A DNA stretch of 64,000 nucleotides from the NCBI GenBank assembly GCA_009840225.1, contig VXOE01000271.1, positions 6,606 through 70,605 on the forward strand, read 5' to 3'. Position numbers and translations under genes: made by a program. The notes beneath the pieces were generated by a model that was not told the DNA's origin, made no database searches, and saw only the letters and a program-made list of their open reading frames with translations. This document shows positions 35,526-55,136 of this stretch, in pieces. The number at the start of each line of letters is the position of its first letter. The stretch's first letter is position 1. This stretch comes from Caldilineaceae bacterium SB0662_bin_25 (GTDB lineage: Bacteria > Chloroflexota > Anaerolineae > Caldilineales > Caldilineaceae).

Positions 35526-38500
35526 ATGTTGCATGATACCCGTACGGAGTTGCCCGGCGATTACTGGCAGCGAGTGAAGAGCGTTCGCGAGGTGAGCGGA
35601 TTGACACAGGCGCAGTTTGCCGAGCAGGTTGGCGTTTCGTTTGCCACCGTCAACCGCTGGGAAAACAGGCAGACGCGGCCCAGCACTTTGGCCTGGTCGC
35701 GTATTCTCGACCTTGAGCGGGCCCAGGCATCGCAGGTGATTCCTGAGCCCGCTTCTTTGCAGCAGCCGGCGCCTGTGACGGTTCCGGGCATGGATTTTGC
35801 GGCGGATCCGGAAGCTGTCGCGGCGGTTGTCGAGGCGCACCGTCTTACGTACGGGCATCTTTTCAATTCCGCGTTTGCGATTGAGACGTCGCTGATCGAT
35901 CCGCTGCCGCACCAGCGGATTGCGGTTTACGAGCGCATGCTGAACCAGGCGCCGCTGCGTTTCCTGCTGGCGGATGACGCCGGCGCGGGCAAGACGATTA
36001 TGACGGGGCTGTATGTGCGGGAGATGATCTCACGAAGGCTCATCCGCCGCATTCTGATCGTGCCGCCGGCAGGCCTGGTGGGGAACTGGGAGCGTGAGCT
36101 GCGGACGCTTTTCCGGCTGCAGTTTCGCATTGCCAGCGGGGCGGACGCGCGCGGGGGCAACCCTTTTGCCGGGCCCGAGAGCGACCGCCTGATCGTCAGC
36201 CTCGATACGCTGCGAGGTGAGCGCATGTTCGCGCGCCTCAAAGAGCCTGAGACGGCGCCCTATGATCTGGTGGTCTTCGACGAGGCCCACAAGCTGTCGG
36301 CGCACCGCGAGCAGGACCTGCGGGTGCGCAAGACGGGCCGCTACCGCCTCGCCGAAGCCATCGCCGGCGCAGAGACCGATAGCGAAAAGTGGGCGCTGCC
36401 GTGGTCGGCGCATCATCTGCTGCTGCTCACCGCCACGCCGCACATGGGTAAGGAATATCCCTTCTTTGCTCTGTGGCGCCTGCTGATGCCGGATACGCTC
36501 TCGACCCCGGAAGCGTTTGACGGCTTTTCCCGTGATTCGCGGCGCAGGCATTTCATGCGCCGCACGAAGGAGGAGATGGTCCGCTTTGACGGACAGCCGC
36601 TCTATCCACAGAGAAACTGCGGCACGTTGAGCTATGAACTGACGCAAGGGCCGGGCAGCGAGCAGGAGCTGTACGACGAGACGACGGAGTACATCGCGAC
36701 CTACTACAACAGGGCCAAGATGTTGAACAGGTCGGCGGCGCGCCTGGCGATGAGCGTGTTCCAGCGCCGGCTGGCCAGCTCCACCTATGCGCTGATGCGC
36801 TCGTTCGAGCGGCGGAAAGAGAAGCTGGAGGCCTTGATCGATGATATCAGGAACGACAGGCTGAGAGAAGAGCAGCTGGCGCCGCAACAAGGAGTCCTTG
36901 AAGATATTTTCGAGACGAGGACTTTCGACGAGCTGGATACGGCTGAAGAGGGGGGCGATGCGCAGGAGGATTTTGAGGAAGAGGCCCTGGCGGGGACGGT
37001 GGCGGTCAACCTGGCTGAGCTGGAGGTGGAGCGTCAGCGGGTCGACACGTTGCTTGGCAAGGCGCGCAGGCTCTACGAAGCCGGTGAGGAGTCCAAGTTT
37101 GAGAGGTTGCAGAGTGTACTACGGGACGAGGAAGATGCCGACGAAAAGCTGATACTCTTTACCGAGCATCGCGATACGGCTGAGTTTCTGATTCGCAGGC
37201 TGGAGGGTCTCGGCTTCACCGGCAGGATCGCGCTGATTCACGGCGGGATGCCCTACCAGGAGCGTGAGCGGCAGGTGGAGTTTTTCCGCCGTTCGGCAGC
37301 GGACAACGGGGCCAACTATCTCGTGGCCACCGACGCCGCGGGCGAGGGCATCAATCTCCAGTTCTGCTGGCGGATGGTCAACTACGACATTCCCTGGAAC
37401 CCTGCCCGCCTGGAGCAGCGCATGGGCCGCATCCACCGTTATGGGCAGGAGCGGGATCCGGTTGTCATCGTCAACCTGGTGGCGGGCGCGACACGGGAAG
37501 GCCGGGTGATGAAGAGGCTACTGGAGAAGCTGGAGCTGATCCGGGACCAGCTCGGGTCCGACAAGGTTTTCGATGTCATCGGCCGCCTGTTCGAGGGCGT
37601 TTCGTTCGGCGATTATCTGGCGCAAGCAGCGGCGGGGGAGGAGGGAGAGGTCCTCCGTCAGATAGAAGGAAGCCTGACCAGCGAGCAGGTGATGGCGCTG
37701 GAGGAGAGGGAACGTTCGCTTTACGGGGCGGGGGGCGAGGTGCGCCGCGCCTTGCCCGAACTGCGAAAGCAGACTGGAGAGGAGCATTACCGGCGCCTCA
37801 TACCGGGGTATGTTTATCGTTTTGTCGAAAGGGCGGCGCCGCTGCTCGGCCTGCGGGTAGAAGGGGACCCGGAGGAGGCGTTTGCGCTGGAGGCGACCCG
37901 GCCGCGTGCGCGCGACTTCCTGTTTTCGGCATTGGAAACCTATGCGGCCGGGGCCCGCAACCGTCTGACGGTAGTTAAACCGGATTTTCACGGGGCTGCG
38001 GTGTGGCTGCATCCGGGCGAACCGGTGTTTGACCGCCTGGCGCAGACGGTCATCGTGCGGCACGGCGAACAGGGGCTGCGGGGGGCGGTGTTCGTCGATC
38101 CTTACGCGGAGGAACCGTACCTGGTGCATGCGGCGCTGGTCACTGTAGAGCAGGAGGCGAGTTCAGGGGAGGCTGGCGCGGCCGCGGCCGGCGCAAGGAT
38201 CCTGGAATCGCGGCTGGTGGGGCTGCGTCAGAGTGCGGAGGGAGATATCGAAGAGTGGCCGGTGGAGCGGTTGCTTCTGCTGCGGGGCGCGCCCGGATTT
38301 GCACCGGGCGGGGAGCCGCTGGCCGCGCGGGCGCGCAAGCTGAATCCGGCGGCAGAAGAGTACGTGCGCGCTGATGTTCTTGAGCAGCATGTGCAGGCGC
38401 AGCGGCGGCGTATCCTGGCCGACTTGCCCGACCGCCAGGCGCACGTCAGGCGGGGCTATGGCTTTCAGGCGGCCGAACTGGCGGCGCGGCGTGCCAATCT

Positions 38501-39107
38501 GGTCGCGGACGTGCGGGCCGGGGACGCAGATGCCCAGCGGGAGCTGGCCAGGGTCAAAGCGCGGCAGCGGAGCCTGAATGCGTCGCGGCGGCGGCGTCTG
38601 GCTGAACTGGCGGCAGAGGCGGATCAGGTGCGCGGCGGCGAGGTTGAGTTTATCACGCACGCGCTGGTCGTGCCGGCAAGCGATCCGGAGATTGTCGAGC
38701 AGTTCGACGTGCAGGTGGAGAAGGTGGCGATGGAGGTTGCGACCTCCTTTGAGGAGAGCCGCGGCGCGCGCGTGCAGGATGTTTCGCGACCTTATCTGGC
38801 GCGCCGCGCCGGCCTGCCCGACTGGCCGGGGTTCGACATCCTGTCCGTGAGGCCTGGGGACGAGGCCCGCAGCATCGAGGTCAAGGGCCGGGCCCGGGCG
38901 GGCCCAGTTGAGATGACCGACAACGAATGGGCCAGGGCCTGCAACCTGCGCGACGACTACTGGTTGTACGTTGTTTTTGACTGCGCGACGTCGCACCCGC
39001 GGCTCATCCGCGTGCGTGACCCGTTCGACAAGCTGCTGGCCAACAGTCGCTCGTCGAATTCGGTTACCGTCAACGTTGAGGCGCTCTATGGCGCTGCGGA
39101 AGCGTAA
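35526..39107 (+). CDS. HTH(XRE)-SNF2 helicase-DUF3883 fusion protein
   Basis: N-terminal [30 protein letters not shown]2 motifs [56 protein letters not shown]. C-terminal GFDILSV...IEVKGR...[21 protein letters not shown] is a DUF3883-type nuclease-like fold. Confidence 0.9.
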   Translation: [1193 protein letters not shown]

Positions 39108-39120: not shown

Positions 39121-39456
39121 ATGGCCGCAAGACAGCCGCGTTACAGCAAAGAGGAGTTCGCCCAGCGCGGCCAGGCACTTTACGAGAAGTGCGTGAGGGC
39201 GCAGGTGGAAAGAGGCAACCGCGGGCGGATCGTAGCAGTTGACATCGAGACGGGTGAGTTCGAGGTGGGAGACGATGCGGTAGCCGCCTCCAGCCGGCTC
39301 CTGGCGCGCTGTCCGGATGCGCAGCCGTGGTGTGTGCGCATCGGGTACCGGGCGATGCACCGGTTTGGGCAGTTGCATGGCAGCGGCGCGCGAGGGTTGC
39401 GGGGCGGGTCAACGCCGAGCCACTCTATGCGGCTGCGGAATAGTAGAGGGAGATAA
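39121..39456 (+). CDS. DUF5678-like small protein
   Basis: GRIVAVDIETGEFEVGDDAVAASSRLLARCPDAQPWCVRIGYRAMHRFG parallels 26038-26355. A retropepsin-like gene follows 5 nt downstream. Confidence 0.5.
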   Translation: MAARQPRYSKEEFAQRGQALYEKCVRAQVERGNRGRIVAVDIETGEFEVGDDAVAASSRLLARCPDAQPWCVRIGYRAMHRFGQLHGSGARGLRGGSTPSHSMRLRNSRGR

Positions 39457-39460: not shown

Positions 39461-39844
39461 ATGGGGGTAACACAAGTAACAGTCCTTATCCGCAATCCGG
39501 CCGAGCCGGACAGAACATGGGAAGGACTATTCCTTGTCGATACCGGCGCGATCGATTCGCTGGTTCCCAGGCCGCAATTGGAGGCCATCGGTCTCAGGCC
39601 CAAGGGGCAGCGTGTATACGGGCTGGCAGACGGCAGCGAAATCCGGCTCGACATCACGACTGCAGACATAGAGTTTATGGGTGAAATCGTCGGTGGGACG
39701 ATTGTGTTTGGCGCGGAAGACGCGGAGCCGCTGCTGGGGGTGACCGCGCTGGAATCGGTGGGCATAGAGGTCGATCCGCGTAATCAGACACTCAAGAGGT
39801 TGCCGACGACGCGACTCAAATTCCTAGGAACTAGCCAGGGTTGA
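39461..39844 (+). CDS. Retropepsin-like (clan AA) aspartyl protease
   Basis: 127 aa with LFLVDTGAIDSLVP (DTGA active-site motif) and C-terminal LLGVTALESVGIEVDP. Confidence 0.6.
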   Translation: MGVTQVTVLIRNPAEPDRTWEGLFLVDTGAIDSLVPRPQLEAIGLRPKGQRVYGLADGSEIRLDITTADIEFMGEIVGGTIVFGAEDAEPLLGVTALESVGIEVDPRNQTLKRLPTTRLKFLGTSQG

Positions 39845-39866: not shown

Positions 39867-41222
39867 ATGGAGAACAAACGAGATCACATTTTTTTGAGTT
39901 ACGCTACTGAGGATTGGCCATTTTGTGAGTGGCTCGGCCGCCGGCTCGCTGCGGAAGGGTACGCCATATGGTGCGACCGACTGAAGATGCTGGGGGGAGA
40001 GAATTGGCCTAATGATATTGAGATCGCGATAGCCGAACGAACATTTCGGATGCTTGCACTAATGTCGCGGGCGTCGATGCGCAAGCCCAATCCACAGGGG
40101 GAATGGCAAAAGGCTAGAGCCATGGGGGCTAAGTTAGGAGTTGAAGATTTCCTTATTCCATTAAATGTTGAAGGTCTTCGATCTGATGAGATTATATGGA
40201 ATTTTCAAACAATCAATTACATCAGTTTTTCACATAGTTGGTCCGATGGTCTCGCCGCCGTACTGAAAAAACTCCACTCGGTCTCGGCACCCAGAGTTTT
40301 GAAGGAAGGACGACGGCTCGCAATAGAATCAACTTTCATGAAGACAGCCATCCGCGAAGAATCTGAAATATTGGTGAGCAACTGCTTTGAGATTATTCAG
40401 ATACCTCGCTACTTGCGCATATATAGCGTTAATGCCAGTCCTATCTCCAAGAGTGAGGGACACGAATTGCGAAAGGAGTGGGCATGCAGTGATGTTACGC
40501 CGTCTACAGTATTGGCATTCCATGATCCGCCGACTGACGTTGCTGCGAGGCATAATTTCCAATACGTCAAGCAGGTTGCTTGGCGCGATGCCATTAAAGT
40601 GGATGGCATTGACTCTCGCGACCTTGTGGTCAGGCTTATTCGAAGATGCCTTGATAGACTCATGACAGAATTCGGATTGAAATATTCCGAAGCCAGCGGA
40701 AATTTCTTTCTTCCCCGTGGTCTTCTACATAACGACCGTGTCCCGGTTACCCTTCCGAATGGGAGGAAAAGCTGGTTCTCTGGAGTCGGTGAACGCAAGT
40801 ATTCAACCGCGAAAGGTGGAGAGGTTTACAGATACCATCTGAGCCCTTCGTTTGACATTGTGCGTGAAGATAATGAACCCACTGCGCTGTTTTTGCGAAA
40901 TCGAGTCCATCTGACCGACAGTAACGGTAAGGAACTGGAAAGACGTAAGATTCCATCGCGACGTAAGCATTTGTGCAGAAGCTGGTTCAATCGAGAGTGG
41001 TGTGTTCGAACTCTCGGCATTGCACAAATGCTCGCCAATGATGATATGCATATCCGATTTGGACCAGAGGGAGAGCAGCAGCTTGTCATCGGTGCTGAGC
41101 CAGTTGCAATGGAGGTTTCTCACAGGATCTGTGACGAACTTGTGGGTGAAATCGATGAAAGCTACACGACATGGTATTCGGGAGAAGAAGCAGGATCTGA
41201 TGATTTCAACGAGGAAGAGTGA
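39867..41222 (+). CDS. TIR-APAZ protein (SPARTA-type partner of short pAgo)
   Basis: N-terminal TIR motif IFLSYATEDWPFCEWLGRRLAAEGYAIWCDR. ~450 aa, immediately upstream of a short pAgo. Size, order and N-terminus match the SPARTA architecture. Confidence 0.8.
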   Translation: MENKRDHIFLSYATEDWPFCEWLGRRLAAEGYAIWCDRLKMLGGENWPNDIEIAIAERTFRMLALMSRASMRKPNPQGEWQKARAMGAKLGVEDFLIPLNVEGLRSDEIIWNFQTINYISFSHSWSDGLAAVLKKLHSVSAPRVLKEGRRLAIESTFMKTAIREESEILVSNCFEIIQIPRYLRIYSVNASPISKSEGHELRKEWACSDVTPSTVLAFHDPPTDVAARHNFQYVKQVAWRDAIKVDGIDSRDLVVRLIRRCLDRLMTEFGLKYSEASGNFFLPRGLLHNDRVPVTLPNGRKSWFSGVGERKYSTAKGGEVYRYHLSPSFDIVREDNEPTALFLRNRVHLTDSNGKELERRKIPSRRKHLCRSWFNREWCVRTLGIAQMLANDDMHIRFGPEGEQQLVIGAEPVAMEVSHRICDELVGEIDESYTTWYSGEEAGSDDFNEEE

Positions 41223-41229
41223 AGACGGT

Positions 41230-42735
41230 ATGCAGAGAGAATTAACGCTCCTATCTGAACCGACTCTAGAATTTCGGTACGGCCAGCAATTGTCCGACCC
41301 ACGAGACGGACTCTCACTTTTTGGCCCGTACGATGCAGACTTGCCTAGTCATCCCGGGGCACTGACCTATGGTGTTGTTGGTACATCGGAGGGGTTAGAT
41401 CAATTCGCGGCATGGTCGCGCGCGATGCTCCGATCATGGACGCATGCCCCAAAGGGACGTCACCGCTTGTGGCCCCCATATCCGGGATTCCAAGCGGCGT
41501 TTGCCTGTAACTGGCATAGTGAACCTGCTTGGCGTCGAGTGCTGGACAGTCACACATTGAGCGACTTAGCGCGACGGCATGACCCGTATGAAAGAGTCTA
41601 TTCTGTTGTTGAAGAATATCTTGAGGCCTTCAAAGAACTGGAGAAGCTCGATCAGCGCATCAATGTCATGGTTTGCATAGTGCCTGACGAGATCTATAAG
41701 ACTTGTCGGATCAAGTCGCGTGTGTCGAATCCAACTGGCGAAAACGTTTCAAGCAAGCGAATCAGGGAGCGCAAGAGCGGCCAACTTGATATGTTCTCGA
41801 CGTATGCGCCGGAGCAGTACGAACTCTCACTTGATTTTCGGCGTCAGATCAAGGCGCGGGCGATGGCGTATGGCGTTCCGATTCAGATAATTCGCGAATC
41901 TACTCTGCGGCTAAGTGACGAAACTCCGTTCGGCCAAAGACAGCTAACTCCACTATCCCATCGCATGTGGAACCTAACCAGTGCACTTTACTACAAGGGA
42001 GGGGGTAAACCGTGGCGGCTTGCCACAGCACGGGAAGGTGTGTGCTATATAGGGCTCGCATTTCGACGACGCGATGCCGAAGGCGGACCTCAAACTGCGG
42101 CATGTGCAGCGCAGATGTTCCTTGATGATGGCGATGGCATAGTATTTTTGGGGAATTATGGGCCATGGTACTCGCCCAAGACCAGGCAGTTTAGACTTAC
42201 GGCTGAGGCAGCGCATGATTTGCTGGAAGGAGCCTTGGAGACCTATGCGCAGTTGCACGGAAAGGCATTAACAGAAGTCTTTCTACATTCTCGGTCCGAA
42301 ATCAGCGCCGAAGAATTTGAAGGATACCGCTCTGCCGCACCTGCCAGTATCAAAATTGTCGGTGTTCGAGTGCGGCCTTGGCGTGACGGTCCCAGGCTCT
42401 ACCGGCCAGACAAGTCCTGGCCGGTGATCCGAGGCACATTTTGGCAGCACTCACCTACGAGAGGATATCTCTTCGGTACGGGGTTCAAGCCAAGGCTCGG
42501 CACCTACGACGGATGGGAAACGCCGGTACCTCTTCAAATGGACGTTCAACATGGTGATGCGAATGTGACTGAGGTAGCGCGCGACATCCTCGGATTAACA
42601 AAACTTAATTACAACGGATGTAATGCTGGCGACTCTCAGCCGGTTACAGTCAAGTTTTCTGATGCAGTGGGCGAGATTCTGGTTAGTAACCCGACGGTGA
42701 CTGACCGGCAACCTACGTTCAGGTATTACATCTGA
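41230..42735 (+). CDS. Short prokaryotic Argonaute (MID-PIWI)
   Basis: 501 aa. The N-terminus LSEPTLEFRYGQQLSDPRDGLSLFGPYD...YGVVGTSEGL...WPPYPGFQAAFACNW...VMVCIVPDEIYKTCR and PIWI-type ALYYKGGGKPWRL resemble characterised short pAgos, from memory of MapAgo-like sequences. Confidence 0.8.
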   Translation: MQRELTLLSEPTLEFRYGQQLSDPRDGLSLFGPYDADLPSHPGALTYGVVGTSEGLDQFAAWSRAMLRSWTHAPKGRHRLWPPYPGFQAAFACNWHSEPAWRRVLDSHTLSDLARRHDPYERVYSVVEEYLEAFKELEKLDQRINVMVCIVPDEIYKTCRIKSRVSNPTGENVSSKRIRERKSGQLDMFSTYAPEQYELSLDFRRQIKARAMAYGVPIQIIRESTLRLSDETPFGQRQLTPLSHRMWNLTSALYYKGGGKPWRLATAREGVCYIGLAFRRRDAEGGPQTAACAAQMFLDDGDGIVFLGNYGPWYSPKTRQFRLTAEAAHDLLEGALETYAQLHGKALTEVFLHSRSEISAEEFEGYRSAAPASIKIVGVRVRPWRDGPRLYRPDKSWPVIRGTFWQHSPTRGYLFGTGFKPRLGTYDGWETPVPLQMDVQHGDANVTEVARDILGLTKLNYNGCNAGDSQPVTVKFSDAVGEILVSNPTVTDRQPTFRYYI

Positions 42736-42969: not shown

Positions 42970-43335
42970 ATGAGCCAACTCGGTTTGCTGACCGGCATTT
43001 ACGCTGATGTCGAGACGTACGGGGCGCTGATAGACAGGGTAATTGACCGCCTGGGGCGGGGGCAGGTTGACCCGACCGAGCCGGACCAGAAGAGGCTGGC
43101 GCAACTTTTTGTTGATGCAAGCGATCAAGGTCTGGCGTCGCAGTCCCTGAAAGCGTTGATGTTGGACAGCCTGCTCAGGACAAGCACTGCTGAACCTATG
43201 GCAGACTTGAAGCTGCTAGGTGAACGTCTTCAGAGCGGTGATGTGGATCATGCGTTTCTGAAGCAGATCGAGGAACTCGCAAGACAGCTGGAACAGAAGC
43301 GGGTGGACATTGCGCGTCAGATACGGGGCTGTTGA
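42970..43335 (+). CDS. Hypothetical 121-aa protein
   Basis: ORF only; predicted helical; no motif recognised. Its stop overlaps an ATG (ATGA at 43333-43337). Confidence 0.4.
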   Translation: MSQLGLLTGIYADVETYGALIDRVIDRLGRGQVDPTEPDQKRLAQLFVDASDQGLASQSLKALMLDSLLRTSTAEPMADLKLLGERLQSGDVDHAFLKQIEELARQLEQKRVDIARQIRGC

Positions 43336-43457
43336 TGACCATGAGACTCTTGATAGGGCTATTGGGGAATCTACTGGAATGGGCGCCGAAAGGTTATGAG
43401 GCTTGGAAGGTAAAGCAGCTTGAGACTTTACGTGCGATCATTGACGTGGCGTTTTGA
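43335..43457 (+). CDS. Possible 40-aa peptide
   Basis: ATG overlaps the preceding stop. Reads MTMRLLIGLLGNLLEWAPKGYEAWKVKQLETLRAIIDVAF. Below the ORF-track size threshold, with no further support. Confidence 0.2.
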   Translation: MTMRLLIGLLGNLLEWAPKGYEAWKVKQLETLRAIIDVAF

Positions 43458-43571
43458 ACGGCGCGCGCCCAAGGCAGCGGCACTCGAGTCCGTGGTGACT
43501 GAAGCTAGTCGGCGTAGTCAGATGCGTAAGAGATTGTCGGCAACTAGACATAAGGGGTATAGAGAGAGGGT

Positions 43572-45299: not shown

Positions 45300-45334
45300 C
45301 GCAAGGGTGAGCAAACTTAGAGAGGCAATCAAGA

Positions 45335-46333
45335 ATGCTCGAGCATATTTCAAAGATACTTGCTACTGAAAAACTATTGGACTATCTCGCCAGCGGCATT
45401 GGGGCGACTGCCGGCCCTATCTTTCGTCCTTGGCAGGCATACATGGAGGGTCATGCGAAACGCATTTCCGCCCGGGCTGATGCCGATGCTTTGGCGATCA
45501 TTGCGGAGGCTCAAGCCGATGCACGTCAGTATTTGATCGCGCCGGGTGCAGATGTACAAGGGGCGGTAGAAATCACCCACGAAAACATCATGCAGCGAAT
45601 CGAATTCCAGGAGAGGAAGCGTCTCGCCAATATCAGGTCGGTCGTGGAGAGTGCTGCGGAAGAACTGGGCGAAAAGGAAGTAGTCGATCACGAACCGGAT
45701 CATGATTGGACCGCGCGCTTCTTCGACTGTGTGCAGGACGTATCGTCTGAGCATATGCAGAAGCTATGGGCTAAAGTCCTATCCGGGGAAGTCGAAAGCC
45801 CTGGGCGGACCTCGCTCCGAACTCTGGATACCCTCCGAAACATGACGAAAAGAGATGCCGAGCTTTTCGATGAATTCGCCGGCTACGTTATTGGAGGCAA
45901 GTTTGTGTTCAACGACGATCATTTTGTGCAACGCCTCGGCGCTATGAAACCCAAATACCTACTGCACCTTCAGGATTGCGGTTTGGTAATCATTGCACCG
46001 TTTTTGAGGTGGACTGGAACATTCGGGGATGGGGAGAGATCGTTTTTTCTCTATCAGGGTGGCGCTCTGCTGATCGAGAAAGAGAAAGGCGCTTCAGATA
46101 AGTTGGAGATTCCCATAGTCTCGCTCACAGCCGCTGGCAAAGAACTTTTCCAGATTGTCCAAGGGTCAGTACAAAAGGCTTACTTACAAGACTTCGCTAC
46201 CTTTCTTCAAAATAGGGGCTGCCAATTGTATCTCGTCGATGAAGTAGTAAATTTGCCTGAAGGCGGGTTTAACTACACCAGTTGCGAGTTAATTGAGCCA
46301 AGACCCATACAATCAGGAATGCCGACCTTATGA
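45335..46333 (+). CDS. DUF2806-like protein
   Basis: DWTARFFDCVQDVSSEHMQKLWAKVLSGEVESPGRTSLRTLDTLRNMTKRDAELFDEF matches my recollection of the DUF2806 core. Its stop overlaps the methylase ATG (ATGA at 46330-46333). Confidence 0.55.
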   Translation: MLEHISKILATEKLLDYLASGIGATAGPIFRPWQAYMEGHAKRISARADADALAIIAEAQADARQYLIAPGADVQGAVEITHENIMQRIEFQERKRLANIRSVVESAAEELGEKEVVDHEPDHDWTARFFDCVQDVSSEHMQKLWAKVLSGEVESPGRTSLRTLDTLRNMTKRDAELFDEFAGYVIGGKFVFNDDHFVQRLGAMKPKYLLHLQDCGLVIIAPFLRWTGTFGDGERSFFLYQGGALLIEKEKGASDKLEIPIVSLTAAGKELFQIVQGSVQKAYLQDFATFLQNRGCQLYLVDEVVNLPEGGFNYTSCELIEPRPIQSGMPTL

Positions 46334-49300
46334 CAGACAAACGCCTGATTGAAGTTGAATTTCCGCTTAAGCAGACCTCGCTCGACTCTGTGCACGAGAA
46401 AAACGTGCGGCATGGGCACATTTCCACGCTGCATATCTGGCCGGCGCGTAGGCCGCTGGCCGCTTCGCGGGCGGCGCTGATTGCGACGCTGCTGCCGGAC
46501 TCTGGCAACGCGGAGAAGCGCAAGGAGATTCTGGAGCGGATGGCCGGCCGTGTCGTGGAAAAGATCGAGCGGCGGCGGGTCAACGGGCGTCAAGTTGAGA
46601 AGGTGAAGGAGGAGACGGTCGGCGGCATTCTTCACTGGGGGCGGGAGAACGGGCCGGACCTGCAGTGGTTCCGCGATGAGATTCGTAAGGCCTACGGGGG
46701 CCGTGCACCCAAGGTTCTGGACCCGTTTGCAGGGGGCGGCGCGATCCCGCTTGAGGCGATGCGTTTGGGCTGCGAAGTTACGGCCATGGACATCAACCCG
46801 GTCGCCTGGTTCATCCTCAAGTGCACGCTTGAATATCCGCAAAAGCTGGCCGGGCAGACGCGGCCGCTGCCGGAGTTTGCGCTGCACGACGGCGAGTTCA
46901 TGGAGGCGTTTCTCAAGAGTAAGGAGTTCAAAGGCGCGTCACTGCGAACGATGCTGGAGCGGCTCGGGCATGGGAAGGGTGAGACGCAGTTAAATTACCT
47001 GAGCCAGGAGGATCCGATCCTCGAGGCCGATCTGGCGTGGCAGGTGCGGGCCTGGGGGCGATGGGTGCTGGCCAGGGCGCGCAAGGAGCTAGCATCCTAC
47101 TACCCGACCTACGCCGAATTCGTGCCGCTGGGGTCCGATAGCGAAGATGATGACCCGCCTCCTATACAGCTGTTGGAGGTCGATGCAGATGGTGTAGCGC
47201 AAATCGATCCGCTCAACGCCGAATATGACGATGACTACCTGCGCGACCCGCGAAACCCGCGCTGGATCGCCAAGCCGACGGTTGCCTACCTGTGGGCGCG
47301 TACTGTGATTTGCAAGCAGTGCCGCGCTACGTTGCCCCTGCTCAAGACACGCTGGCTGTGCAAGAAGGAGCGCAAGCGGGTGCTGCTGACGATGGAGCCG
47401 GACGCCGACGGAACCGGTGTCGTCTTTGGGGTGGAGCCGGATGTGCCGCGCGTCGGCGGCAACGCGGCGCAGCGCCGGGAGCATGACAGGCGCGCCGGCG
47501 CGGGCACAATGTCGCGTGCCGGCGCTACCTGTCCCTGCTGTGGCGTCATCATGACGATGGAGGATATCCGCCTGGAGGGGCGAGCGGGGCGGCTGGACGC
47601 GGTGATGACAGCGGTTGTGGTCAACGGACCAAAAGGAAAAGAGTACCGACTTCCGACCGAGAACGAGCGCACGGTGGCAGAGGTGTCAGAGCGCGAACTG
47701 CAAACGCTTTACGCTGACATTCCCTTCGGGCTGCCGGAAGAACCCACTCCCAAAGCCGGAAGCGGGGCGTCGCGAGCATTTTCTGTGGACGGCTATGGTT
47801 TTGACACGTGGCGCAAGCTGTTTACAAACCGGCAACTCCTGGCACTTGGCGAGTTCGTTAGTGCCTTGCGTGACATGCCGAAGGAACTCGACGGCTATCC
47901 CACCGATTGGGCAGAGTCTATTGTGGCCATGTGCGCCCCCATAATCAGCCGTATGGCAGACCGAGGAAGTACGCTGGCTACATGGACAAATAACCCCGAA
48001 AAAATAAGAAGCACCTTTGCGCGGTTTGCATTGCCGATTACATGGGACTTTTCGGAGTTTGCCCCGCTATCCGATACCACAGGAGGGTTTGTTCAATCGA
48101 TAGATTGGGTTTTTAAGGTCTGTGAACATCTGCAACAGAGCGTTGAAACGGCTAGCTGCGGGAATAGTATCTGCGAGTCAGCAGTGTCCTGCCCGGTCAA
48201 CGCCGTTGACCTGATTCTAACTGACCCTCCATACTACGATGCGATTCCATATTCCGACTTGATGGATTTTTTCTATGTCTGGCTGAAGCGTTCTCTTCAG
48301 GGGCTGTCTCCCGAAATTGAGCATACCTTTTCCAGAAGTCTCGGACCAAAGTGGGATCACAACTCTAATGATGGCGAGCTGATAGACGACGCCAGCCGGT
48401 TTGGTGGTGACAGAGAACGGTCGAAACAAAACTACGAAGATGGCATGGCACGCACTTTCCGTTCTTGTCATTCTGCGTTGAAGGGCGACGGTCTGCTTGT
48501 AATCGTTTTCGCAAACAAACAGCCGGATGCCTGGGAAACTTTGGTTGCTGCCCTGATTCGAGCCGGTTTTGTCGTTGACGGGTCGTGGCCAATACAAACA
48601 GAGATGGGGAACCGGAATCGAGCCATTGCTTCCGCCGCCCTGTCGTCGTCAGTATGGATAGTCTGCAGGAAGCGACCTCCCTCCCGCCCCGGCTGGGACA
48701 GCAGCGTGCTGCAGGAGATGCGGGAGAACATAACCCAGCAGTTGCGCGACTTTTGGGACGCCGGCATACGCGGGCCGGACTTCGTGTGGGCGGCGACGGG
48801 GCCGGCGCTGGAGGCGTTCAGCAAGTACCCGGCGGTCAAGAAGGCAAACGACCCTGACAAACTGATGAGCGTATCCGAGTTTCTGCGCGAGGTGCGGCGC
48901 ATGGTCGTCGACTTCGTGGTCGGCCGCGTGCTGTCCCAGGACGGCGAGGAGGTGGTGACGGGGCTGGACGACGTCACCACCTACTACCTGCTGCATCGCA
49001 ACGACTTCGGCATGGACGACGCGCCGGTCGGCGGCTGCATCCTCTACGCGCTCTCCTGCAACCTTTCCGACGCGGCGCTGGTGAACCAGCATGACTTGCT
49101 GGCGAAAGGCAAAAAGCGCGGCGCCGGCGAAGCGGTTGAGCAGGAGGGCAGCGAGGAGGAAGGCGGCGGGGGCGGCGCCAAGGTCAAGCTGAAGCCATGG
49201 AACCGGCGCACGGGACGCAATCTGGGAGTTGAAGGCCCGGGCGGGCGGCCTGTACCTCTGATAGACCAGGTGCACAAGCTGATGCAGCTCTGGCGCGGCG

Positions 49301-49500
49301 GCGACCAGGGCAAGGTGAACAGTTACATTGATGAACGCGGGCTGCAGCGCAACGCGCTGTTTGTGCAGATCCTGCAGGCCTTGATCGAGCTGGCTGATGC
49401 CGGCTCCGGGGAACGCTCGATCCTGGAGGCGCTCAGCAATCATGTTAAGAATCGAGAGCGTGTGAGGCCGACGCGCCAGGGCCAGTTTGTTTTAGAATAG
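46330..49500 (+). CDS. DUF1156-family DNA methyltransferase (amino-MTase with Zn-ribbon)
   Basis: DUF1156 N-terminus LIEVEFPLKQTSLDSVHEKNVRHGHISTLHIWPARRPLAASRAALIATLL. SAM motif I LDPFAGGGAIPLEAMRLG, Cys4 (CKQC...CPCC), motif IV LTDPPYYD. Confidence 0.9.
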   Translation: MTDKRLIEVEFPLKQTSLDSVHEKNVRHGHISTLHIWPARRPLAASRAALIATLLPDSGNAEKRKEILERMAGRVVEKIERRRVNGRQVEKVKEETVGGILHWGRENGPDLQWFRDEIRKAYGGRAPKVLDPFAGGGAIPLEAMRLGCEVTAMDINPVAWFILKCTLEYPQKLAGQTRPLPEFALHDGEFMEAFLKSKEFKGASLRTMLERLGHGKGETQLNYLSQEDPILEADLAWQVRAWGRWVLARARKELASYYPTYAEFVPLGSDSEDDDPPPIQLLEVDADGVAQIDPLNAEYDDDYLRDPRNPRWIAKPTVAYLWARTVICKQCRATLPLLKTRWLCKKERKRVLLTMEPDADGTGVVFGVEPDVPRVGGNAAQRREHDRRAGAGTMSRAGATCPCCGVIMTMEDIRLEGRAGRLDAVMTAVVVNGPKGKEYRLPTENERTVAEVSERELQTLYADIPFGLPEEPTPKAGSGASRAFSVDGYGFDTWRKLFTNRQLLALGEFVSALRDMPKELDGYPTDWAESIVAMCAPIISRMADRGSTLATWTNNPEKIRSTFARFALPITWDFSEFAPLSDTTGGFVQSIDWVFKVCEHLQQSVETASCGNSICESAVSCPVNAVDLILTDPPYYDAIPYSDLMDFFYVWLKRSLQGLSPEIEHTFSRSLGPKWDHNSNDGELIDDASRFGGDRERSKQNYEDGMARTFRSCHSALKGDGLLVIVFANKQPDAWETLVAALIRAGFVVDGSWPIQTEMGNRNRAIASAALSSSVWIVCRKRPPSRPGWDSSVLQEMRENITQQLRDFWDAGIRGPDFVWAATGPALEAFSKYPAVKKANDPDKLMSVSEFLREVRRMVVDFVVGRVLSQDGEEVVTGLDDVTTYYLLHRNDFGMDDAPVGGCILYALSCNLSDAALVNQHDLLAKGKKRGAGEAVEQEGSEEEGGGGGAKVKLKPWNRRTGRNLGVEGPGGRPVPLIDQVHKLMQLWRGGDQGKVNSYIDERGLQRNALFVQILQALIELADAGSGERSILEALSNHVKNRERVRPTRQGQFVLE

Positions 49501-49578: not shown

Positions 49579-50859
49579 ATGGCCAAGATTCAGGGGTTCA
49601 GAGTAAGGAATTTCAAGGTGCTCAAGGATGTGACCCTGGGCCGCCTGTGGGATCAACGCGAAGGCCAGCCGCTCACTGATTTGACGGCGGTCATCGGCAA
49701 GAACGGGGTCGGCAAGAGTGCCCTGTTCGATGCGTTCGGTTTCCTGGCCGATGCTCTGAACTCCGGCGTGGAAGTGGCCTGCGATGCGCGCGGGCGCGGC
49801 GGCTTCGAGAGGATAAGGTCTCAAGGAGAAACCGGGCCAATCGAATTTGATGTCTATTACAAAGAGAATCGGAACGCCCGGCCGATTACCTACGAAGTTG
49901 CTATCGATGCGGACGGCTCCGGACGCCCCTACGTGGTGCGGGAACGGCTCAGGCAGAGACGAAAGGGGCAGAAATACGGTCGGCCGTTTTCGTTTCTGAT
50001 GATCAATGACGGCAAGGGATGGGCATGGAAAGGAGAAGAGGACGGGTATGAGATTGACGAAAGCAAGGAGTGGAGAGACATAAATGCATTGATCCTGTTT
50101 TTCGCGAGAGAGGAATCGAGCGAGACCGAGATCATTGAATTGGAGGACCGTCGCAGGCTCGGCATTGCCACGCTGGGCGCCTTGAAACAGCACCCGCGCA
50201 TTTCCGCTTTCCGCCGCTTCATAGAGGGATGGTATCTCAGCTACTTCACGCCGGACGCGGCGCGCAGCCTGCCGCTGGCCGGGCCCCAGCCGCATCTCAA
50301 CATCCACGGGGACAACCTCGGCAACGTCGTCCAGTTCATGGAGCGCGAGCATCCACAGCGCTTTGAGACGATTCTTGAGGGTATTGCCGGGAAGATACCC
50401 GGCATTGACCGGATCGATACCGAAAAGACAAGCGACGGGCGCCTGCTGCTCCGTTTCAACGACAGAGGCTTTGAAGACCCTTTCTATGCCCAGCAGATGT
50501 CGGACGGGACGCTGAAGGTCTTTGCTTATCTGTTACTGCTCGAGGACCCGACGCCGCCTCCGTTCCTTTGTATTGAAGAGCCTGAGAACGGTCTGTATCA
50601 CAAGCTGCTGGAGACGCTGGTCGACGAGTTTCGCGCGCACGCCAGCGGGCCCGGAGGTGGTTCGCAGATCTTCGTCACGACACATCAGCCTTATCTTGTG
50701 GACGCGCTCAACCCGGAGGAGGTCTGGATTCTGGAGAAGGGGACGGACGGTTTTTCGACGATCCGCCGGGCCAGCGACGATCCTCTCGTCAAGAACCTGG
50801 TTGCGGAGGGGTTGCCGCTGGGTGGCCTCTGGTACAGCGACTATCTTGACGCGAGGTGA
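49579..50859 (+). CDS. AAA_15/AAA_21-type ABC ATPase
   Basis: Walker A AVIGKNGVGKSALFDAF, QMSDGT, Walker B FLCIEEPENGLYH, H-loop FVTTHQPYL. Start chosen at MAKIQGF. Confidence 0.85.
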   Translation: MAKIQGFRVRNFKVLKDVTLGRLWDQREGQPLTDLTAVIGKNGVGKSALFDAFGFLADALNSGVEVACDARGRGGFERIRSQGETGPIEFDVYYKENRNARPITYEVAIDADGSGRPYVVRERLRQRRKGQKYGRPFSFLMINDGKGWAWKGEEDGYEIDESKEWRDINALILFFAREESSETEIIELEDRRRLGIATLGALKQHPRISAFRRFIEGWYLSYFTPDAARSLPLAGPQPHLNIHGDNLGNVVQFMEREHPQRFETILEGIAGKIPGIDRIDTEKTSDGRLLLRFNDRGFEDPFYAQQMSDGTLKVFAYLLLLEDPTPPPFLCIEEPENGLYHKLLETLVDEFRAHASGPGGGSQIFVTTHQPYLVDALNPEEVWILEKGTDGFSTIRRASDDPLVKNLVAEGLPLGGLWYSDYLDAR

Positions 50860-50863: not shown

Positions 50864-51514
50864 ATGCATTTTGAGATCCTCGTTGAAGACCAGTCCGGCA
50901 AGAGGGCGCTTGACGTTCTGATCCCGAAGATCATCGGCGCGCAGGATACATTCAAGGTGAGGGGCTACAAAGGAATTGGCCGCATTCCCAAAGACCTTAG
51001 ACCCAGGACCCAGGCCAATAGACGCATTTTGCTCGACCAGCTTCCCAAGTTGCTCAGGGGGTTTGGGCAGACATTCGTCAATTATCCCGCCAACTATCCG
51101 GCAGTGTTGTTTGTGGTCTGTGACCTGGATGACAAATGTCTGAAGAGATTTCGGCAGGAGCTTTTCTCAGTCCTCCATGCGTGCAATCCTAGACCGGACA
51201 CCCGCTTCTGTATTGCCATCGAAGAGGGCGAGGCCTGGCTGCTCGGTGACATACCCGCGATCAAGGCAGCGTATCCGCAGGCCAAGGATTCTGTTTTGAA
51301 CGGTTACGTCAATGATTCGATATGCGGTACATGGGAGGTCCTGGCGGACGCCGTGTTCCCGGGCGGCTCCAAGGCGCTGGCGGGAGGGGGATGGCAAGCG
51401 GTGGGCAGGGAGAAGTCGATATGGGCGACGAAAATCGCCCCGCTAATGGACGTGGAGAACAACGCATCCCCCAGTTTCCAGTACTTTCGGGGGAAGATGC
51501 GGGCGTTGATTTGA
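50864..51514 (+). CDS. DUF4276-like Toprim-type protein
   Basis: MHFEILVEDQSGKRALDVLIPKI (Toprim-like Glu) and VLFVVCDLDDKC (DxD). Starts 5 nt after the ATPase stop. Confidence 0.65.
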   Translation: MHFEILVEDQSGKRALDVLIPKIIGAQDTFKVRGYKGIGRIPKDLRPRTQANRRILLDQLPKLLRGFGQTFVNYPANYPAVLFVVCDLDDKCLKRFRQELFSVLHACNPRPDTRFCIAIEEGEAWLLGDIPAIKAAYPQAKDSVLNGYVNDSICGTWEVLADAVFPGGSKALAGGGWQAVGREKSIWATKIAPLMDVENNASPSFQYFRGKMRALI

Positions 51515-51557: not shown

Positions 51558-51643
51558 AACTGCTTTTTTCCACGGAGGACACGGAGGGACACGGAGAACT
51601 GCTTTTTTGTCCGCGGAGGGACGCGGAGAGGCGCGGAGAACAC
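51558..51643. repeat. Tandem ACGGAG-rich intergenic repeat (2 units)
   Basis: aactgcttttttccacggaggacacggagggacacggagaactgcttttttgtccgcggagggacgcggagaggcgcggagaac. Related copies lie at 55183-55278. Confidence 0.6.
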
Positions 51644-51812
51644 CAAGGGCGTATCGATTTTTTTGTGCGCAGCCGTTCGCAGAGTAAGCGCACTTTGCCC
51701 GCGTAATTCGCTGTTCGGACAAAGGTCAATGAGGTCCGGACAAATCCCAGATGACGATGGGCCTGCCCCCCAGGCCGTTACAGAAGACTCAATTGCGTGC
51801 AAAGAGGACAAA

Positions 51813-54800
51813 ATGAGCAAGAAACGTACCTGGACACCCTGGCACGAGGTCGTAAGCCTGCGCGATGATCTGAAGAGCGGCGAGCTGTCGCTGGCCGTCT
51901 TCGCCGCCGACCTGTATGACGTGTTGCTGCAAAAAGGGCAGCGGAAAGTTTACGAGGACCCGGCCGAGTTCTTCGCCCTGACCTACCCGACGTTGAACCT
52001 GCGCGAGCTGGCGCGGGACGTGGCGATGCGCCTGGCGGGCCGCAGCGACAAGGCCTATCGCAAACTGTCGGTCACCTACGGCGGCGGCAAGACGCACACG
52101 TTGATCACCCTTCGCCACCTTGTCCACGCCCCTTCCGCGCTGCCGGACCTGCCGGCCGTGCGTGACTTCAAGGCGCATATCGACTTTCGGTTGCCGCACG
52201 CGCGGGTGGCCGCGCTCTGTTTCGACAAGATCGACTTGGAACTGGGCGTGGAGACGCCCGCGCCGGACGGGTCCACCAGGATGCTCAGGCATCCCTGGAG
52301 CGTTCTCGCTTACCAGCTGGCCGGAGCCGACGGGTTGCGCATGATCAGTGCCAGTGGAGAGGATGAGGAGCGAGACACGCCGCCGGCGGAACCCCTGCTC
52401 GTTGGGCTGTTATCGAAGCCGCAGGAGGAAGGACTTTCCACGCTTGTGCTCCTGGACGAAGCGTTGATGTATCTGCGGGTGCAGGTCGAGACCGATCAGT
52501 CGGCGCGCGGGCGCATGGTCGCCTTCTTTCAGTACCTGACGCAGGCGGTCGTCAAGGTGGGCCGCTGCGCGATGGTGGCCTCGTTGCTCGCTTCCGACCC
52601 GGGCAAGCATGATGAATTGGGGAATGAGATCCTGCGCCAGGTGTCTGAGGTCTTCGGGCGCCAGGAGGAGGAGGACGCCAGCCCGGTGAGCAGGGAGGAT
52701 GTGTCCGAGGTATTGCGGCGGCGCTTCTTCAAACCGGAGTCGATCAGTGACCCGGGTCGATTCAGTCCGCACGTTACATCGGTCGTGAACAGCCTGGCTG
52801 CGCTCGATCCACAGACGAAGAAGGAGCGTAAGGCGACCGAGGACAGATATCTCAGAAGCTATCCCTTTCACCCTGATCTCACCGAGATCTTCTACAGCCG
52901 CTGGACCCAGATGGATGGATTCCAGCGGACGCGCGGCATCCTGCGCACCTTTGCGATCGCGCTGCGGGACGCGGAGAAGTGGGATACCAACCCCCTGGTA
53001 GGGCCAAACGTTTTTCTGAGCAGACCGGGAGATGGGGAACTGGCCGAAGCGACCAGCGACCTGGCCGCCATCGCAACCTCCGAAGCAAGCGCCGGCGGCC
53101 ACCAGGCGTGGCGGCCGATCCTCGAAGGCGAACTGGACAAAGCGCGCACAGTTCAAGCCGACGCGAGCGGCCTGAACGGTCGAGAGTTAGAACAGGCGGT
53201 CATTTCGGTCTTTCTCAGCTCTCAACCGGTCGGACAGAAGGCGCAAACGCGGGCGTTGCTGCTGCTGCTGGGCACGGCGAGGCCTGACAAGATCGAGTTG
53301 GAGAAGGCGCTGGTGGGCTGGACCTATCTATCCTGGTTTCTGGATGAGGTGGAGATGGGCCCAACTCGAGGGGACGGCGTGGATGATTTGCCCAAGGCCT
53401 GGCGGCTGGGGAACCGTCCCAATTTGCGCCAGATGCACGACGACGCGTGCCGGAACCGGGTTCCGCCCCAGCTGGTCGAATCCCAGCTCGTCGAGGCGAT
53501 ACGCAAAGAGAGATCTCTGACGGGCGGCGCGGCCGCGGCGGGCGCGCGGGTGCATACACTGCCGCAGGCGCCCAGGGACGTGCAGGACGACGGCGAGTTT
53601 CATTTTGCCGTCCTCGGCCCTGGATCCGCTTCGGAATCCGGCAAGCCGAGCGCGGAGGCGATACGCTTCATCGAGGAGACGACTGCGGCGGACCGCCCGC
53701 GCGTCAATCGCAATGCAATTGTCCTTGCCGTTCCCTCCAAAGATGGACTTGAGAGCGCCCGAGATCGCATTCGGCACCACCTTGGCTGGCAGGAGGTCGG
53801 GACGCAGCTCAAGGACCAGCCAATTGATCCGATCCGTGAGCAGATGCTTGTCGCGGAGACGCGTGCGGCCGGCGAGCGCATTTCTGAGGGCATCAGGCAG
53901 GCCTATTCGATCGTTGTCACCGTCAACGAGGCCAATGAGGTGCACGCTTTCCGGATCGCGGCGACCGGCGACCCGCTCTTCACGACCATCAAAGCCGACC
54001 GGCGCGCCCGCATCCAGGAGACCGAGATCAGTGCGGAGGCGATGATGCCGAACGGCCCCTATGACCTGTGGCGCGAGGGCGAGCAGGAACGCCGGGTGAA
54101 GGACCTGGTCGGCGCATTCGCCCAGTTCGCCAAACTGCCGAAGATGCTGCGCCACAGAGAGATTCTGGGTACGATTGTCCAGGGAATCGAGAGCGGAATC
54201 TGGGTAGGGCGCACGATGCGGCCGGACCGGACGTACAAGAGCCACTGGCGTACACGGGTCGATGACAGCGTGTTGAAGGATACGAGTCTGGAGGTCTGTC
54301 TGCCGGAGTCGGCTACGCTCAGCGACCTTAATCCGAAGCTGCTTGCGTACGGTGTGCTCCCGGAGCTCTGGCAGGGCGATGAGATCAGCGTGCAGTCCGT
54401 GTATGACTATTTCGCGGGCGAACGTGCGGTGCAGGTGCCGAAGGATGGGTACGAGGATACGTTTTTCATTCCGGCGTGCGGGCCGGACCAGGTCAGTGAG
54501 GCAGTTTCGCAGGCGGTCGCACAGGGGTCGATCTGGATGACCAACGGGCCCGCTTCGATCCTGGGCGAGCCGATCCCCGCCGGGGTACTTACGCCGGCGG
54601 CCGTGCTGAGATCGCCGCCGGACCAGATTGGGGTGGGCGAGTTGATGGCTGAAGAGATTGCGGATGCATGGCAGGACGGAAAGAGCAATGCGCTGGCCAT
54701 CATGACCGCCATCTCGGCCAAGCGGGGAGTGAATCTGCCGTGGAGCGCGGTGCGATCCGCGATCGGGGAAGGGATTCGCGCGCAGTGGCTGGAGCTGTCT

Positions 54801-55136
54801 GAAGGGAGCGCCCCCCTGGATACGGATCTGTCGGGTGCTCAGGGTGTTCTGCTGCAGACGCCGGCGGCCAAGCCTGGCGGGGTCCGGGACGGCAGGGATG
54901 ATTACCGGGAGGGGGTGGTGACGGCCGAGGCGACGTTGGAGGGGTATGGGATACAGGACCTGGGAGAGTTGATTCCGGAGATTCTTGAAGCTGCGGCCGG
55001 GGATCCGATCGTGTTCAAGGTTCGGATTGAGTTTGGCGGTGAAAAGGAGCCTGACGGGGAGAAGGTGGAGAGGATAAACGGTTTGCTTTCTGAGGCGCTG
55101 GAGGAGTTGCGGTTGGGTGGGGGCGGGTTGCGGTGA
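51813..55136 (+). CDS. DUF499-family P-loop ATPase
   Basis: Characteristic N-terminus TPWHEVVSLRDDLKSGELSLAVFAADLYDV...YEDPAEFFALTYPT, P-loop YGGGKTHTLITLRHL, Walker B LVLLDEALMY. The 667-aa antisense ORF over it is a GC shadow. Confidence 0.85.
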   Translation: MSKKRTWTPWHEVVSLRDDLKSGELSLAVFAADLYDVLLQKGQRKVYEDPAEFFALTYPTLNLRELARDVAMRLAGRSDKAYRKLSVTYGGGKTHTLITLRHLVHAPSALPDLPAVRDFKAHIDFRLPHARVAALCFDKIDLELGVETPAPDGSTRMLRHPWSVLAYQLAGADGLRMISASGEDEERDTPPAEPLLVGLLSKPQEEGLSTLVLLDEALMYLRVQVETDQSARGRMVAFFQYLTQAVVKVGRCAMVASLLASDPGKHDELGNEILRQVSEVFGRQEEEDASPVSREDVSEVLRRRFFKPESISDPGRFSPHVTSVVNSLAALDPQTKKERKATEDRYLRSYPFHPDLTEIFYSRWTQMDGFQRTRGILRTFAIALRDAEKWDTNPLVGPNVFLSRPGDGELAEATSDLAAIATSEASAGGHQAWRPILEGELDKARTVQADASGLNGRELEQAVISVFLSSQPVGQKAQTRALLLLLGTARPDKIELEKALVGWTYLSWFLDEVEMGPTRGDGVDDLPKAWRLGNRPNLRQMHDDACRNRVPPQLVESQLVEAIRKERSLTGGAAAAGARVHTLPQAPRDVQDDGEFHFAVLGPGSASESGKPSAEAIRFIEETTAADRPRVNRNAIVLAVPSKDGLESARDRIRHHLGWQEVGTQLKDQPIDPIREQMLVAETRAAGERISEGIRQAYSIVVTVNEANEVHAFRIAATGDPLFTTIKADRRARIQETEISAEAMMPNGPYDLWREGEQERRVKDLVGAFAQFAKLPKMLRHREILGTIVQGIESGIWVGRTMRPDRTYKSHWRTRVDDSVLKDTSLEVCLPESATLSDLNPKLLAYGVLPELWQGDEISVQSVYDYFAGERAVQVPKDGYEDTFFIPACGPDQVSEAVSQAVAQGSIWMTNGPASILGEPIPAGVLTPAAVLRSPPDQIGVGELMAEEIADAWQDGKSNALAIMTAISAKRGVNLPWSAVRSAIGEGIRAQWLELSEGSAPLDTDLSGAQGVLLQTPAAKPGGVRDGRDDYREGVVTAEATLEGYGIQDLGELIPEILEAAAGDPIVFKVRIEFGGEKEPDGEKVERINGLLSEALEELRLGGGGLR

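Follow-up and report, generated by a model that had tools for sequence, protein, structure and literature searches.

What holds the three genes of this locus together when kilobases of other defence genes lie between them? The locus, at 35526-55136 of a 64,000-nucleotide stretch (hereafter the window) of contig VXOE01000271.1 from the metagenome-assembled genome (MAG) Caldilineaceae bacterium SB0662_bin_25, comprises 13 same-strand genes and a 40-aa open reading frame (ORF) according to the ORF listing and the gene calls, which were taken from an identical ENA metagenome scaffold (L001, the window's own scaffold). From the letters alone, an original prediction had described a helicase, a DUF1156 methylase and a DUF499 ATPase, co-oriented and separated by 7.2 and 2.3 kb, and had asked whether this core serves as a landing pad for other defence cassettes or works together with some of them. 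Coordinates, strand and gene content hold, and the name Hma, which had been suggested tentatively, is borne out by a PADLOC run in which the HmaA, HmaB and HmaC models match. The core genes are as follows.

hmaA, 35526..39107, + strand: HTH_3 (N-terminal), SNF2/DEAH helicase and C-terminal NOV_C (PD-(D/E)xK) nuclease
hmaB, 46330..49500, + strand: predicted DUF1156 N6-adenine-type DNA methyltransferase
hmaC, 51813..55136, + strand: DUF499 ATPase

HmaA matches its PADLOC model at full length (5e-169, profile positions 69-1165 of 1176, hmmscan) and carries the Pfam domains HTH_3, SNF2-rel_dom, Helicase_C and NOV_C; a simple motif check placed DEAH at residue 252 and found a D...EVK nuclease motif. 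HmaB is matched by PADLOC HmaB (3e-117) and Pfam DUF1156 (1e-16) and has a DPPY motif at residue 632. HmaC is matched by PADLOC HmaC (4e-74) and Pfam DUF499 (2e-15), and by NCBIfam DUF499_antiphage at 6e-22, under the curated cutoff. A simple pattern search gave no Walker A match in HmaC, and its gene could also start further upstream, at the TTG at 51663. With a helicase-nuclease, a DUF1156 protein and a DUF499 protein in A-B-C order on one strand, the trio is the Hma system of PADLOC, alias the Type-1 DUF499-centred BREX-related (BR) system. The locus is a three-gene Hma operon, both internal junctions of which hold other defence genes: 7,222 bp lie between hmaA and hmaB (the A|B gap) and 2,312 bp between hmaB and hmaC (the B|C gap). 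The embedded load comes to ten called genes and the 40-aa ORF, and the A|B gap alone holds seven called genes and that ORF. We consider it likely that this is a single operon, resembling restriction-modification (RM) operons, in which A|B and B|C are hypervariable slots that gather same-strand, tightly packed cassettes by recombination at the ends of the core genes.

The comparison set consisted of 80 HmaB-anchored genome loci (L003-L082) with 10-kb flanks, onto which the window proteins were mapped. In 73 of these loci hmaA precedes hmaB on the same strand, and in 71 hmaC lies downstream, again on that strand. Such conservation of order and strand means that the arrangement is not a chance juxtaposition. 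In six of the loci without hmaA, the sequence available before hmaB is shorter than 3 kb. The gap sizes were counted with the window included, so that 74 loci were scored for A|B and 72 for B|C.

A|B gap, n = 74: <=300 bp in 4 loci, >1 kb in 66; median 3.7 kb, range 23 bp to 9.0 kb
B|C gap, n = 72: <=300 bp in 12 loci, >1 kb in 56; median 2.1 kb, range 19 bp to 6.8 kb

Nearly empty junctions are found at A|B of L076 and at B|C of L036, L047, L062 and L077, and both junctions are compact only in L076. Between them the gaps contain 454 ORFs, 83% on the operon strand, which form 202 clusters, 145 of them singletons. The HmaB relatives, at 59-89% identity, come from MAGs of Caldilineaceae, Dehalococcoidia, Latescibacterota, Poribacteria, Binatia, Spirochaetia and Alphaproteobacteria; identity this high across at least seven distant lineages indicates recent inter-phylum transfer of whole Hma loci. 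The record names suggest that these MAGs derive from sponge microbiomes.

In the window, the two slots hold the following genes, from p111 to the DUF2806 gene in A|B and the HEC-01 pair in B|C.

p111, 39121-39456, + strand: small ORF, no family
p127, 39461-39844, + strand: clan AA (retropepsin-like) aspartic protease, TIGR03698
TIR-APAZ, 39867-41222, + strand: SPARTA subunit; PADLOC Aga_TIR-PNTD1-PNTD2 1e-65, Pfam TIR_2 2e-20
Short pAgo, 41200-42735, + strand: MID-PIWI, 511 aa; PADLOC pAgo_I 2e-166
p121, 42970-43335, + strand: small ORF, no family, with spacers of 234 bp and 236 bp on its sides
OLD-family nuclease, 43572-45299, + strand: single gene (ABC ATPase and TOPRIM); PADLOC Old 2e-21, partial coverage
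DUF2806 protein, 45335-46333, + strand: Pfam DUF2806 2e-38
HEC-01A, 49579-50859, + strand: ABC (AAA_21) ATPase; PADLOC HEC-01A 2e-192, Pfam AAA_21 3e-47
HEC-01B, 50864-51514, + strand: DUF4276; PADLOC HEC-01B 2e-91

The closest relatives carry different sets of these genes. In L083, whose HmaB is 98% identical, the order is p121-DUF2806-hmaB, and the 10 kb read upstream of hmaB contain neither OLD nor SPARTA; against this locus the OLD gene appears as a clean indel (43338-45333) that separates p121 from DUF2806. In L084 (HmaB 93%), A|B is filled by nSTAND, metallophosphatase and HATPase_c_3 genes and B|C by an FRG pair; hmaA is still followed by a p111-like region, and a copy of p127 lies farther along. 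The p127 DNA is 95-96% identical to that of L083 and L084. L085 (HmaB 90%) has hmaA-p111-p127-SPARTA like the window and then carries a different OLD gene, 638-aa, which overlaps the hmaB start; in blastn, homology between the two loci breaks off at 42809, 74 bp past the end of pAgo, and picks up again at 46336, the third codon of hmaB. The core acts as a landing pad, with A|B and B|C as variable slots in which near relatives swap cargo, so on this point the original prediction is upheld by both junctions across the 80 loci. As a separate observation, L085 and L086 lie on ENA contig ptg000986l (127 kb), which has the same hmaB near both ends and is either circular with overlapping ends or carries a duplicated locus.

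The units of exchange are smaller and more numerous than had been proposed. The ATPase-Toprim and DUF2806 genes had been taken as one unit, but they are not a pair, as shown by the clean indel of OLD and by the counts in the HmaB-anchored set (5 loci with OLD and 13 with DUF2806 among 81, together only in the window and L038). L083 and L005 have p121-DUF2806 without OLD, and L085 has an OLD gene without DUF2806. Likewise, three to four nested cassettes understated the load: there are at least seven separately gained or lost units, mostly in series, and two of them, p111 and OLD, are genuinely inserted into older cargo. Other recurrent cargo, counted over the same 81 loci, includes an AAA_21 ATPase, mostly in B|C (46 loci), and a 191-aa gene that is usually the last before hmaC and is a possible partner of the ATPase (19 loci). 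These are followed by pAgo (14), p127 (13), DUF4276 (11), TIR-APAZ (10), a Zeta-toxin-like gene (10), p121 (9, with varying downstream partners), a PDC-S32/AbiJ-like gene (6), an AAA_35 STAND-like ATPase (6), Ppl (4), Schlafen/AlbA (4), a GmrSD-like/NsnA gene (4) and a MORC-like ATPase-nuclease (3). p127 directly follows hmaA as the first gene in 12 of 70 loci.

The cassette borders bear traces of how they may have formed. Searching the gaps with core-gene ends revealed decayed duplicates of such ends, here called ghosts, at cassette borders in 17 related loci: hmaA-3' ghosts in five (L006, L084, L030, L083 and L026), hmaB-5' ghosts in eight and hmaB-3' ghosts in six. In L009 and L163 an hmaB-5' ghost stands right after pAgo and is followed by new cargo and then intact hmaB. 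Ghosts of hmaC ends were not found in the locus gaps; a lone secondary hmaC-5' match at the end of L029 is probably a real gene cut by the locus end. The window has one ghost.

hmaA-3' ghost, 39387..39449, + strand: directly upstream of p127

It shows 42 of 63 ungapped matches to the 63-nt hmaA tail, a score that 0 of 200 shuffles reached (maximum 35). It aligns with the clearer ghosts of L006, L084 and L085, stands at the same position as that of L006 (E=1e-20), and its similarity runs on into the stop codon and a GGGAG resembling a ribosome-binding site just downstream. The last ~25 codons of p111 pass through it out of frame. A hmaA-tail ghost just upstream of p127 points to p111 having been inserted between hmaA and p127 together with a duplicated hmaA tail. 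At the protein level, hmmsearch --max with the hmaA, hmaB and hmaC ends against six-frame translations of the window gaps gave nothing significant, and the HmaA C-terminus showed no protein similarity to p111, p127, p121 or OLD.

Two related loci preserve further rearrangements. At 13163-14640 of L006, a 345-bp segment occurs twice, around ~1.1 kb of inserted DNA; the segment runs from the 3' end of hmaB through the spacer into the first 24 nt of HEC-01A, and it is the clearest case of a duplicative insertion at a core-gene end. In L070 (HmaB 80% identical), at 13334-13447 and 15389-15653, what is left of the HEC-01A start is joined to the HEC-01B start, which is present a second time nearby; a HEC-01 cassette seems to have been deleted there, leaving these decayed traces.

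Breakpoints and ghosts together suggest, from sequence comparison, a stepwise build-up by recombination at core-gene ends. Cassettes would enter and leave at the ends of the conserved core genes, the new cargo bringing along a duplicate of part of the neighbouring core-gene end. The route may be single-crossover (Campbell-type) integration or unequal recombination between differently loaded Hma loci, after which the redundant copy of the core end would decay into a ghost. p111 may have entered the window in this way, between hmaA and p127; OLD would either have been gained here between p121 and DUF2806 or been lost from the relatives.

The cargo is packed tightly against the core. Where it is the last cargo gene, its stop lies -5 to +8 bp from the hmaB start, often as ATGA or TTGA, for DUF2806 (12 loci), PDC-S32 (6) and OLD (3); the DUF2806-hmaB spacers in these 12 loci are -4 to +5 bp. 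pAgo in the last position ends 20-66 bp upstream of hmaB. In the window, the DUF2806 stop codon overlaps the hmaB start (ATGA) and the TIR-APAZ and pAgo genes share 23 nt. The cargo lies entirely on the + strand, as had been noted, and spacers are mostly short (-23 to +35 bp), except for those of 78 bp (hmaB to HEC-01A), 234, 236 and 298 bp. The cargo is probably read from the operon's own transcript. Predicted promoters and terminators between the cassettes occurred at shuffle expectation, and a sigma-70 consensus applied to a Chloroflexi-type genome is uninformative on operon structure. HmaA itself has an XRE-type HTH_3 at its N-terminus (residues 16-64, window 35526-35720), which is also present in L084, L085, L163, L164, L169 and L170; this suggests that HmaA may regulate its own operon, possibly including all the embedded cargo.

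In composition the cargo stands apart from the core. Its G+C content (GC) is below that of the core in every locus, by 10 points for each of TIR-APAZ, OLD and DUF2806, 7.6 for pAgo, 7.5 for HEC-01B, 5.6 for HEC-01A and, on average, 2.9 for p127. In the window, GC is 0.47-0.54 over 40-46 kb vs 0.58-0.69 over 35-40 kb, the latter covering hmaA, in agreement with the AT-richer segment reported earlier at 39.9-46.3 kb. No tRNA genes that could mark island borders were found in the window.

Most of the cargo is predicted to form self-sufficient systems. TIR-APAZ aligns near full length with PDB 8fex chain A (deposited as TIR-APAZ) over residues 5-431, and a Glu of the query pairs with residue 77 of that chain, which we take to be the catalytic Glu. 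pAgo matches the SPARTA pAgo chains of PDB 8j8h, 8ifk and 8fex nearly full length (1e-96 to 9e-93). A TIR-APAZ gene followed by a short pAgo gene is, by gene content, a SPARTA system; PADLOC and the PDB matches agree with the pair that had been placed between hmaA and hmaB. It is predicted to detect invader DNA with an RNA guide and then to deplete NAD+ through the TIR domain. The OLD protein combines an ABC ATPase with a TOPRIM domain in one chain (OLD-like_TOPRIM 27.8 bits, cutoff 23.2; Walker A GPHNAGKS at residue 31; AAA_21 match limited to residues 212-281) and is a predicted ATPase-nuclease. We considered whether it could be the GajA of Gabija and rejected this, as GajA models match weakly (1e-14) and the next gene is DUF2806, not a GajB UvrD-like helicase.

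HEC-01A has a Walker A motif at residue 40, and HEC-01B matches Pfam DUF4276 at 4.6e-06, under the curated cutoff. An ABC ATPase followed after a 4-bp spacer by a DUF4276 gene between hmaB and hmaC is the arrangement of HEC-01, so the ATPase and DUF4276 gene of the original prediction correspond to PADLOC HEC-01A/B. The pair would act as an ABC-ATPase sensor and a TOPRIM effector, the TOPRIM-like assignment of HEC-01B being taken from Payne et al. 2024 (bioRxiv 10.1101/2024.01.29.577857). Of the supposed DUF5678/protease pair, the protease stands (p127, 84 bits to TIGR03698, cutoff 57), and DUF5678 does not: p111 has no Pfam match at E<=0.05 and no NCBIfam match at E<=0.01. Homologues of p111, 85-91 aa long, occur in L084, L085 and L162. 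p121 belongs to no family in Pfam, PADLOC or NCBIfam profile searches. The DUF2806 protein has 822 homologues at E<=1e-5 and is 100% identical to an NCBI protein of Caldilineaceae bacterium SB0668_bin_21. Its AlphaFold2 model, built from 31 sequences, has a mean pLDDT of 62.8 and is confident in the C-terminal half only; Foldseek returned no PDB match at E<=0.001. Remote homology between DUF2806 and PDC-S32/AbiJ_NTD4, both of them apparently coupled to hmaB in translation, was rejected, as hhalign gave no real match.

The second half of the original question, whether some of the cargo works with Hma, concerns DUF2806, the AAA_21 pair and possibly SPARTA. pAgo relatives at >=75% identity lie inside the Hma A|B slot in 5 of 5 places (L087, L162, L163, L164 and L085), three of them reached by pAgo-anchored look-ups, L087 by a pAgo-anchored metagenome scan and L085 through HmaB. 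Relatives at 70%, 68% and 60% (L165-L167) lie outside Hma loci, as does the bulk at 45-61%. Over 14 SPARTA-bearing loci, pAgo distances correlate with those of HmaA (r=0.92), HmaC (0.86) and HmaB (0.63), with permutation p<=0.0005 each (Mantel). The SPARTA-bearing loci are scattered through the HmaB tree beside sisters without SPARTA, a pattern compatible with one ancient capture and many later losses or replacements, or with exchange among related loci only. The two samples anchored on DUF2806 (55% and 51% identity) both lie in the A|B slot of Hma loci, and L170 has a compact six-gene operon, hmaA-DUF2806-hmaB-AAA_21-p202-hmaC, with overlapping genes.

These patterns speak for a composite system, in which DUF2806, the AAA_21 ATPase pair of B|C and this SPARTA lineage would be working parts or dedicated backups of Hma, expressed and regulated together with the core; in one variant, they would be triggered once Hma has been disabled by an anti-restriction protein, like PrrC in EcoprrI. 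Also in favour of a composite, DUF2806, when last before hmaB, always has its stop overlapping or nearly overlapping the hmaB start, and the AAA_21 ATPase is frequent in our set and present in all Halomonas hma loci (PMC11232893); a backup-effector model has been proposed in PMC12839542 and Payne 2024. Against this, each cargo type is absent from many close relatives, and loci with nearly no gap at a junction exist (L076, L077, L036 and L047). The cargo keeps a foreign, lower GC in all hosts. SPARTA acts alone in heterologous hosts, co-divergence can come from physical linkage alone, and unbiased sampling is thin, with five cases for pAgo and two for DUF2806. On balance we regard a composite system as possible but rather unlikely. 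A broader proposal appears somewhat more doubtful still: that in these MAGs the SPARTA lineage and DUF2806 are modules long confined to Hma, diverging in step with the core while the operon as a whole passes from phylum to phylum, with DUF2806 translationally coupled to the methylase and Hma serving as a scaffold that builds multi-layer super-operons by duplicative core-end recombination.

At the other extreme, the locus could be an ordinary defence island, in which the hma genes and the other systems are mere neighbours, with no specific slots and no single Hma operon. Defence genes do cluster in general, and the flanks of this locus hold defence-like and mobile genes (a 1202-aa ORF with a weak Dsr1 match, HNH and AAA_25 genes, an integrase and a transposase). 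This explanation is contradicted by the conserved order and slots: the order and strand of hmaA, hmaB and hmaC persist across at least seven bacterial lineages, the cargo lies between the core genes and predominantly on their strand, and the breakpoints coincide with core-gene starts and stops. Payne 2024, moreover, found that Hma systems are not typically near other defence systems. We judge an ordinary island very improbable.

Several points also weigh against the slot-and-recombination reading that we prefer. The window holds only one short ghost, so that most of its cassette borders bear no direct trace of their origin; local tandem duplication, with no exchange between loci, could also have produced the ghosts. 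The tracking of core divergence by pAgo points to long residence and not to repeated fresh insertion, and the three spacers of 234-298 bp could hold internal promoters. As to function, HEC-01 was one of the two HEC systems that gave no protection against the phages tested (Payne 2024), and PMC11232893 gives no demonstration of methylation by HmaB.

The landing-pad idea is already published, and the arrangement is typical of Hma (Payne 2024; Liu 2024; PMC12839542). Hma was discovered through its association with Septu (Payne et al. 2021). Embedded genes were later found in 62.7% of 1,485 Hma systems, and seven of nine Hma-embedded candidate (HEC) systems were validated (Payne et al. 2024). The window shares with that survey the three core families, their order and strand, co-oriented cargo between the hma genes, HEC-01 itself and ABC-ATPase genes as the commonest cargo. 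The survey, however, allowed at most three embedded genes per gap, well below what the A|B gap of the window contains, so the window would probably be missed by such a search. According to Liu et al. 2024 (PMC11232893), 66.5% of hma loci carry insertions, and an AAA_21 pair is a constant feature of the interval from hmaB to hmaC; Halomonas HmaA alone protects against T4 through its NOV_C nickase, HmaB being without effect. The Halomonas meridiana hmaABC hotspot resembles the window in its A|B insertions (Septu, PARIS and Ppl there), its two-gene AAA_21 pair in B|C and a HmaA with SNF2 and NOV_C. It differs in that the window's cargo is SPARTA, OLD, DUF2806 and an aspartic protease, and in that the window's host is a Caldilineaceae MAG, from a sponge metagenome to judge by its record name, and its locus is known from sequence alone.

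PMC12839542 (NAR 2026), which renames the system Type-1 DUF499-centred BR, likewise describes a DUF499 ATPase, an N6-methyltransferase and a helicase with a REase-type nuclease, with OLD-ABC/TOPRIM modules embedded. It treats the embedded nucleases as recruited backup layers, the OLD-ABC modules being backup effectors; the rapid turnover in our set and the recombination scars favour mobile cargo for most of them. PrrC in EcoprrI (a type I RM system) and BrxU and PARIS in BREX are similar in that an independent same-strand defence gene sits inside an RM-like operon, and they serve as the model for functional backup. In those cases there is one embedded unit with cross-talk shown by experiment, whereas the window has at least seven units and no known cross-talk. 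The main texts of the Hma and BR studies cited here make no mention of pAgo/SPARTA, DUF2806 or duplicated core-gene ends, and our literature search for SPARTA or pAgo with Hma or DUF1156 found no linking paper among those searched.

That RM-like operons such as Hma gather defence systems is established, and the property has been used for discovering new ones. The window is an unusually loaded example that includes SPARTA and would probably escape current detection rules. It adds sequence-level clues to embedding, namely breakpoints at core starts and stops and decayed core-end duplicates at cassette borders; if true, the core-end build-up mechanism and its scars are undescribed for embedded defence systems. 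It also yields two candidates for functional coupling to Hma, DUF2806, through its overlap with the hmaB start, and a SPARTA lineage that appears Hma-restricted in a small sample.

Some features of the surroundings deserve mention. hmaC is bracketed by tandem ~31-nt units (AACTGCTTTTGATCCACGGAGGGACACGGAG-like) at 51560-51640 and 55173-55273. The motif CACGGAGAACTGCTTTT is confined to the hmaC flanks in the 64-kb window (3 matches vs 0.12 expected) and, among 86 loci, occurs only in the window's own scaffold, L003 and L086. The repeats may be a regulatory site or a module border; a role as general cassette borders was rejected because they are limited to the window and these two closest relatives.

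Convergent with hmaC, a 1202-aa ORF at 55856-59464 (- strand, GC 0.45-0.47) has no Pfam or NCBIfam family, and has only a weak PADLOC Dsr1 C-terminal match (1e-14). None of the other Hma loci examined carries this ORF, which is possibly a further defence gene of uncharacterised type. Left of hmaA, the region 26595-35016 contains an AAA_25 ATPase gene (28253-29407, - strand), an HNH_3 endonuclease gene (34270-35016, - strand) and several long ORFs without family, and this flank may be the backbone of a mobile element. Further left lie a tyrosine integrase gene (16449-17615) and a DDE transposase gene (11856-13328). At 23865-25631 (- strand), an SBP_bac_1 solute-binding gene is split into two adjacent ORFs that correspond to the N- and C-terminal halves of the family, and is probably a frameshifted pseudogene.

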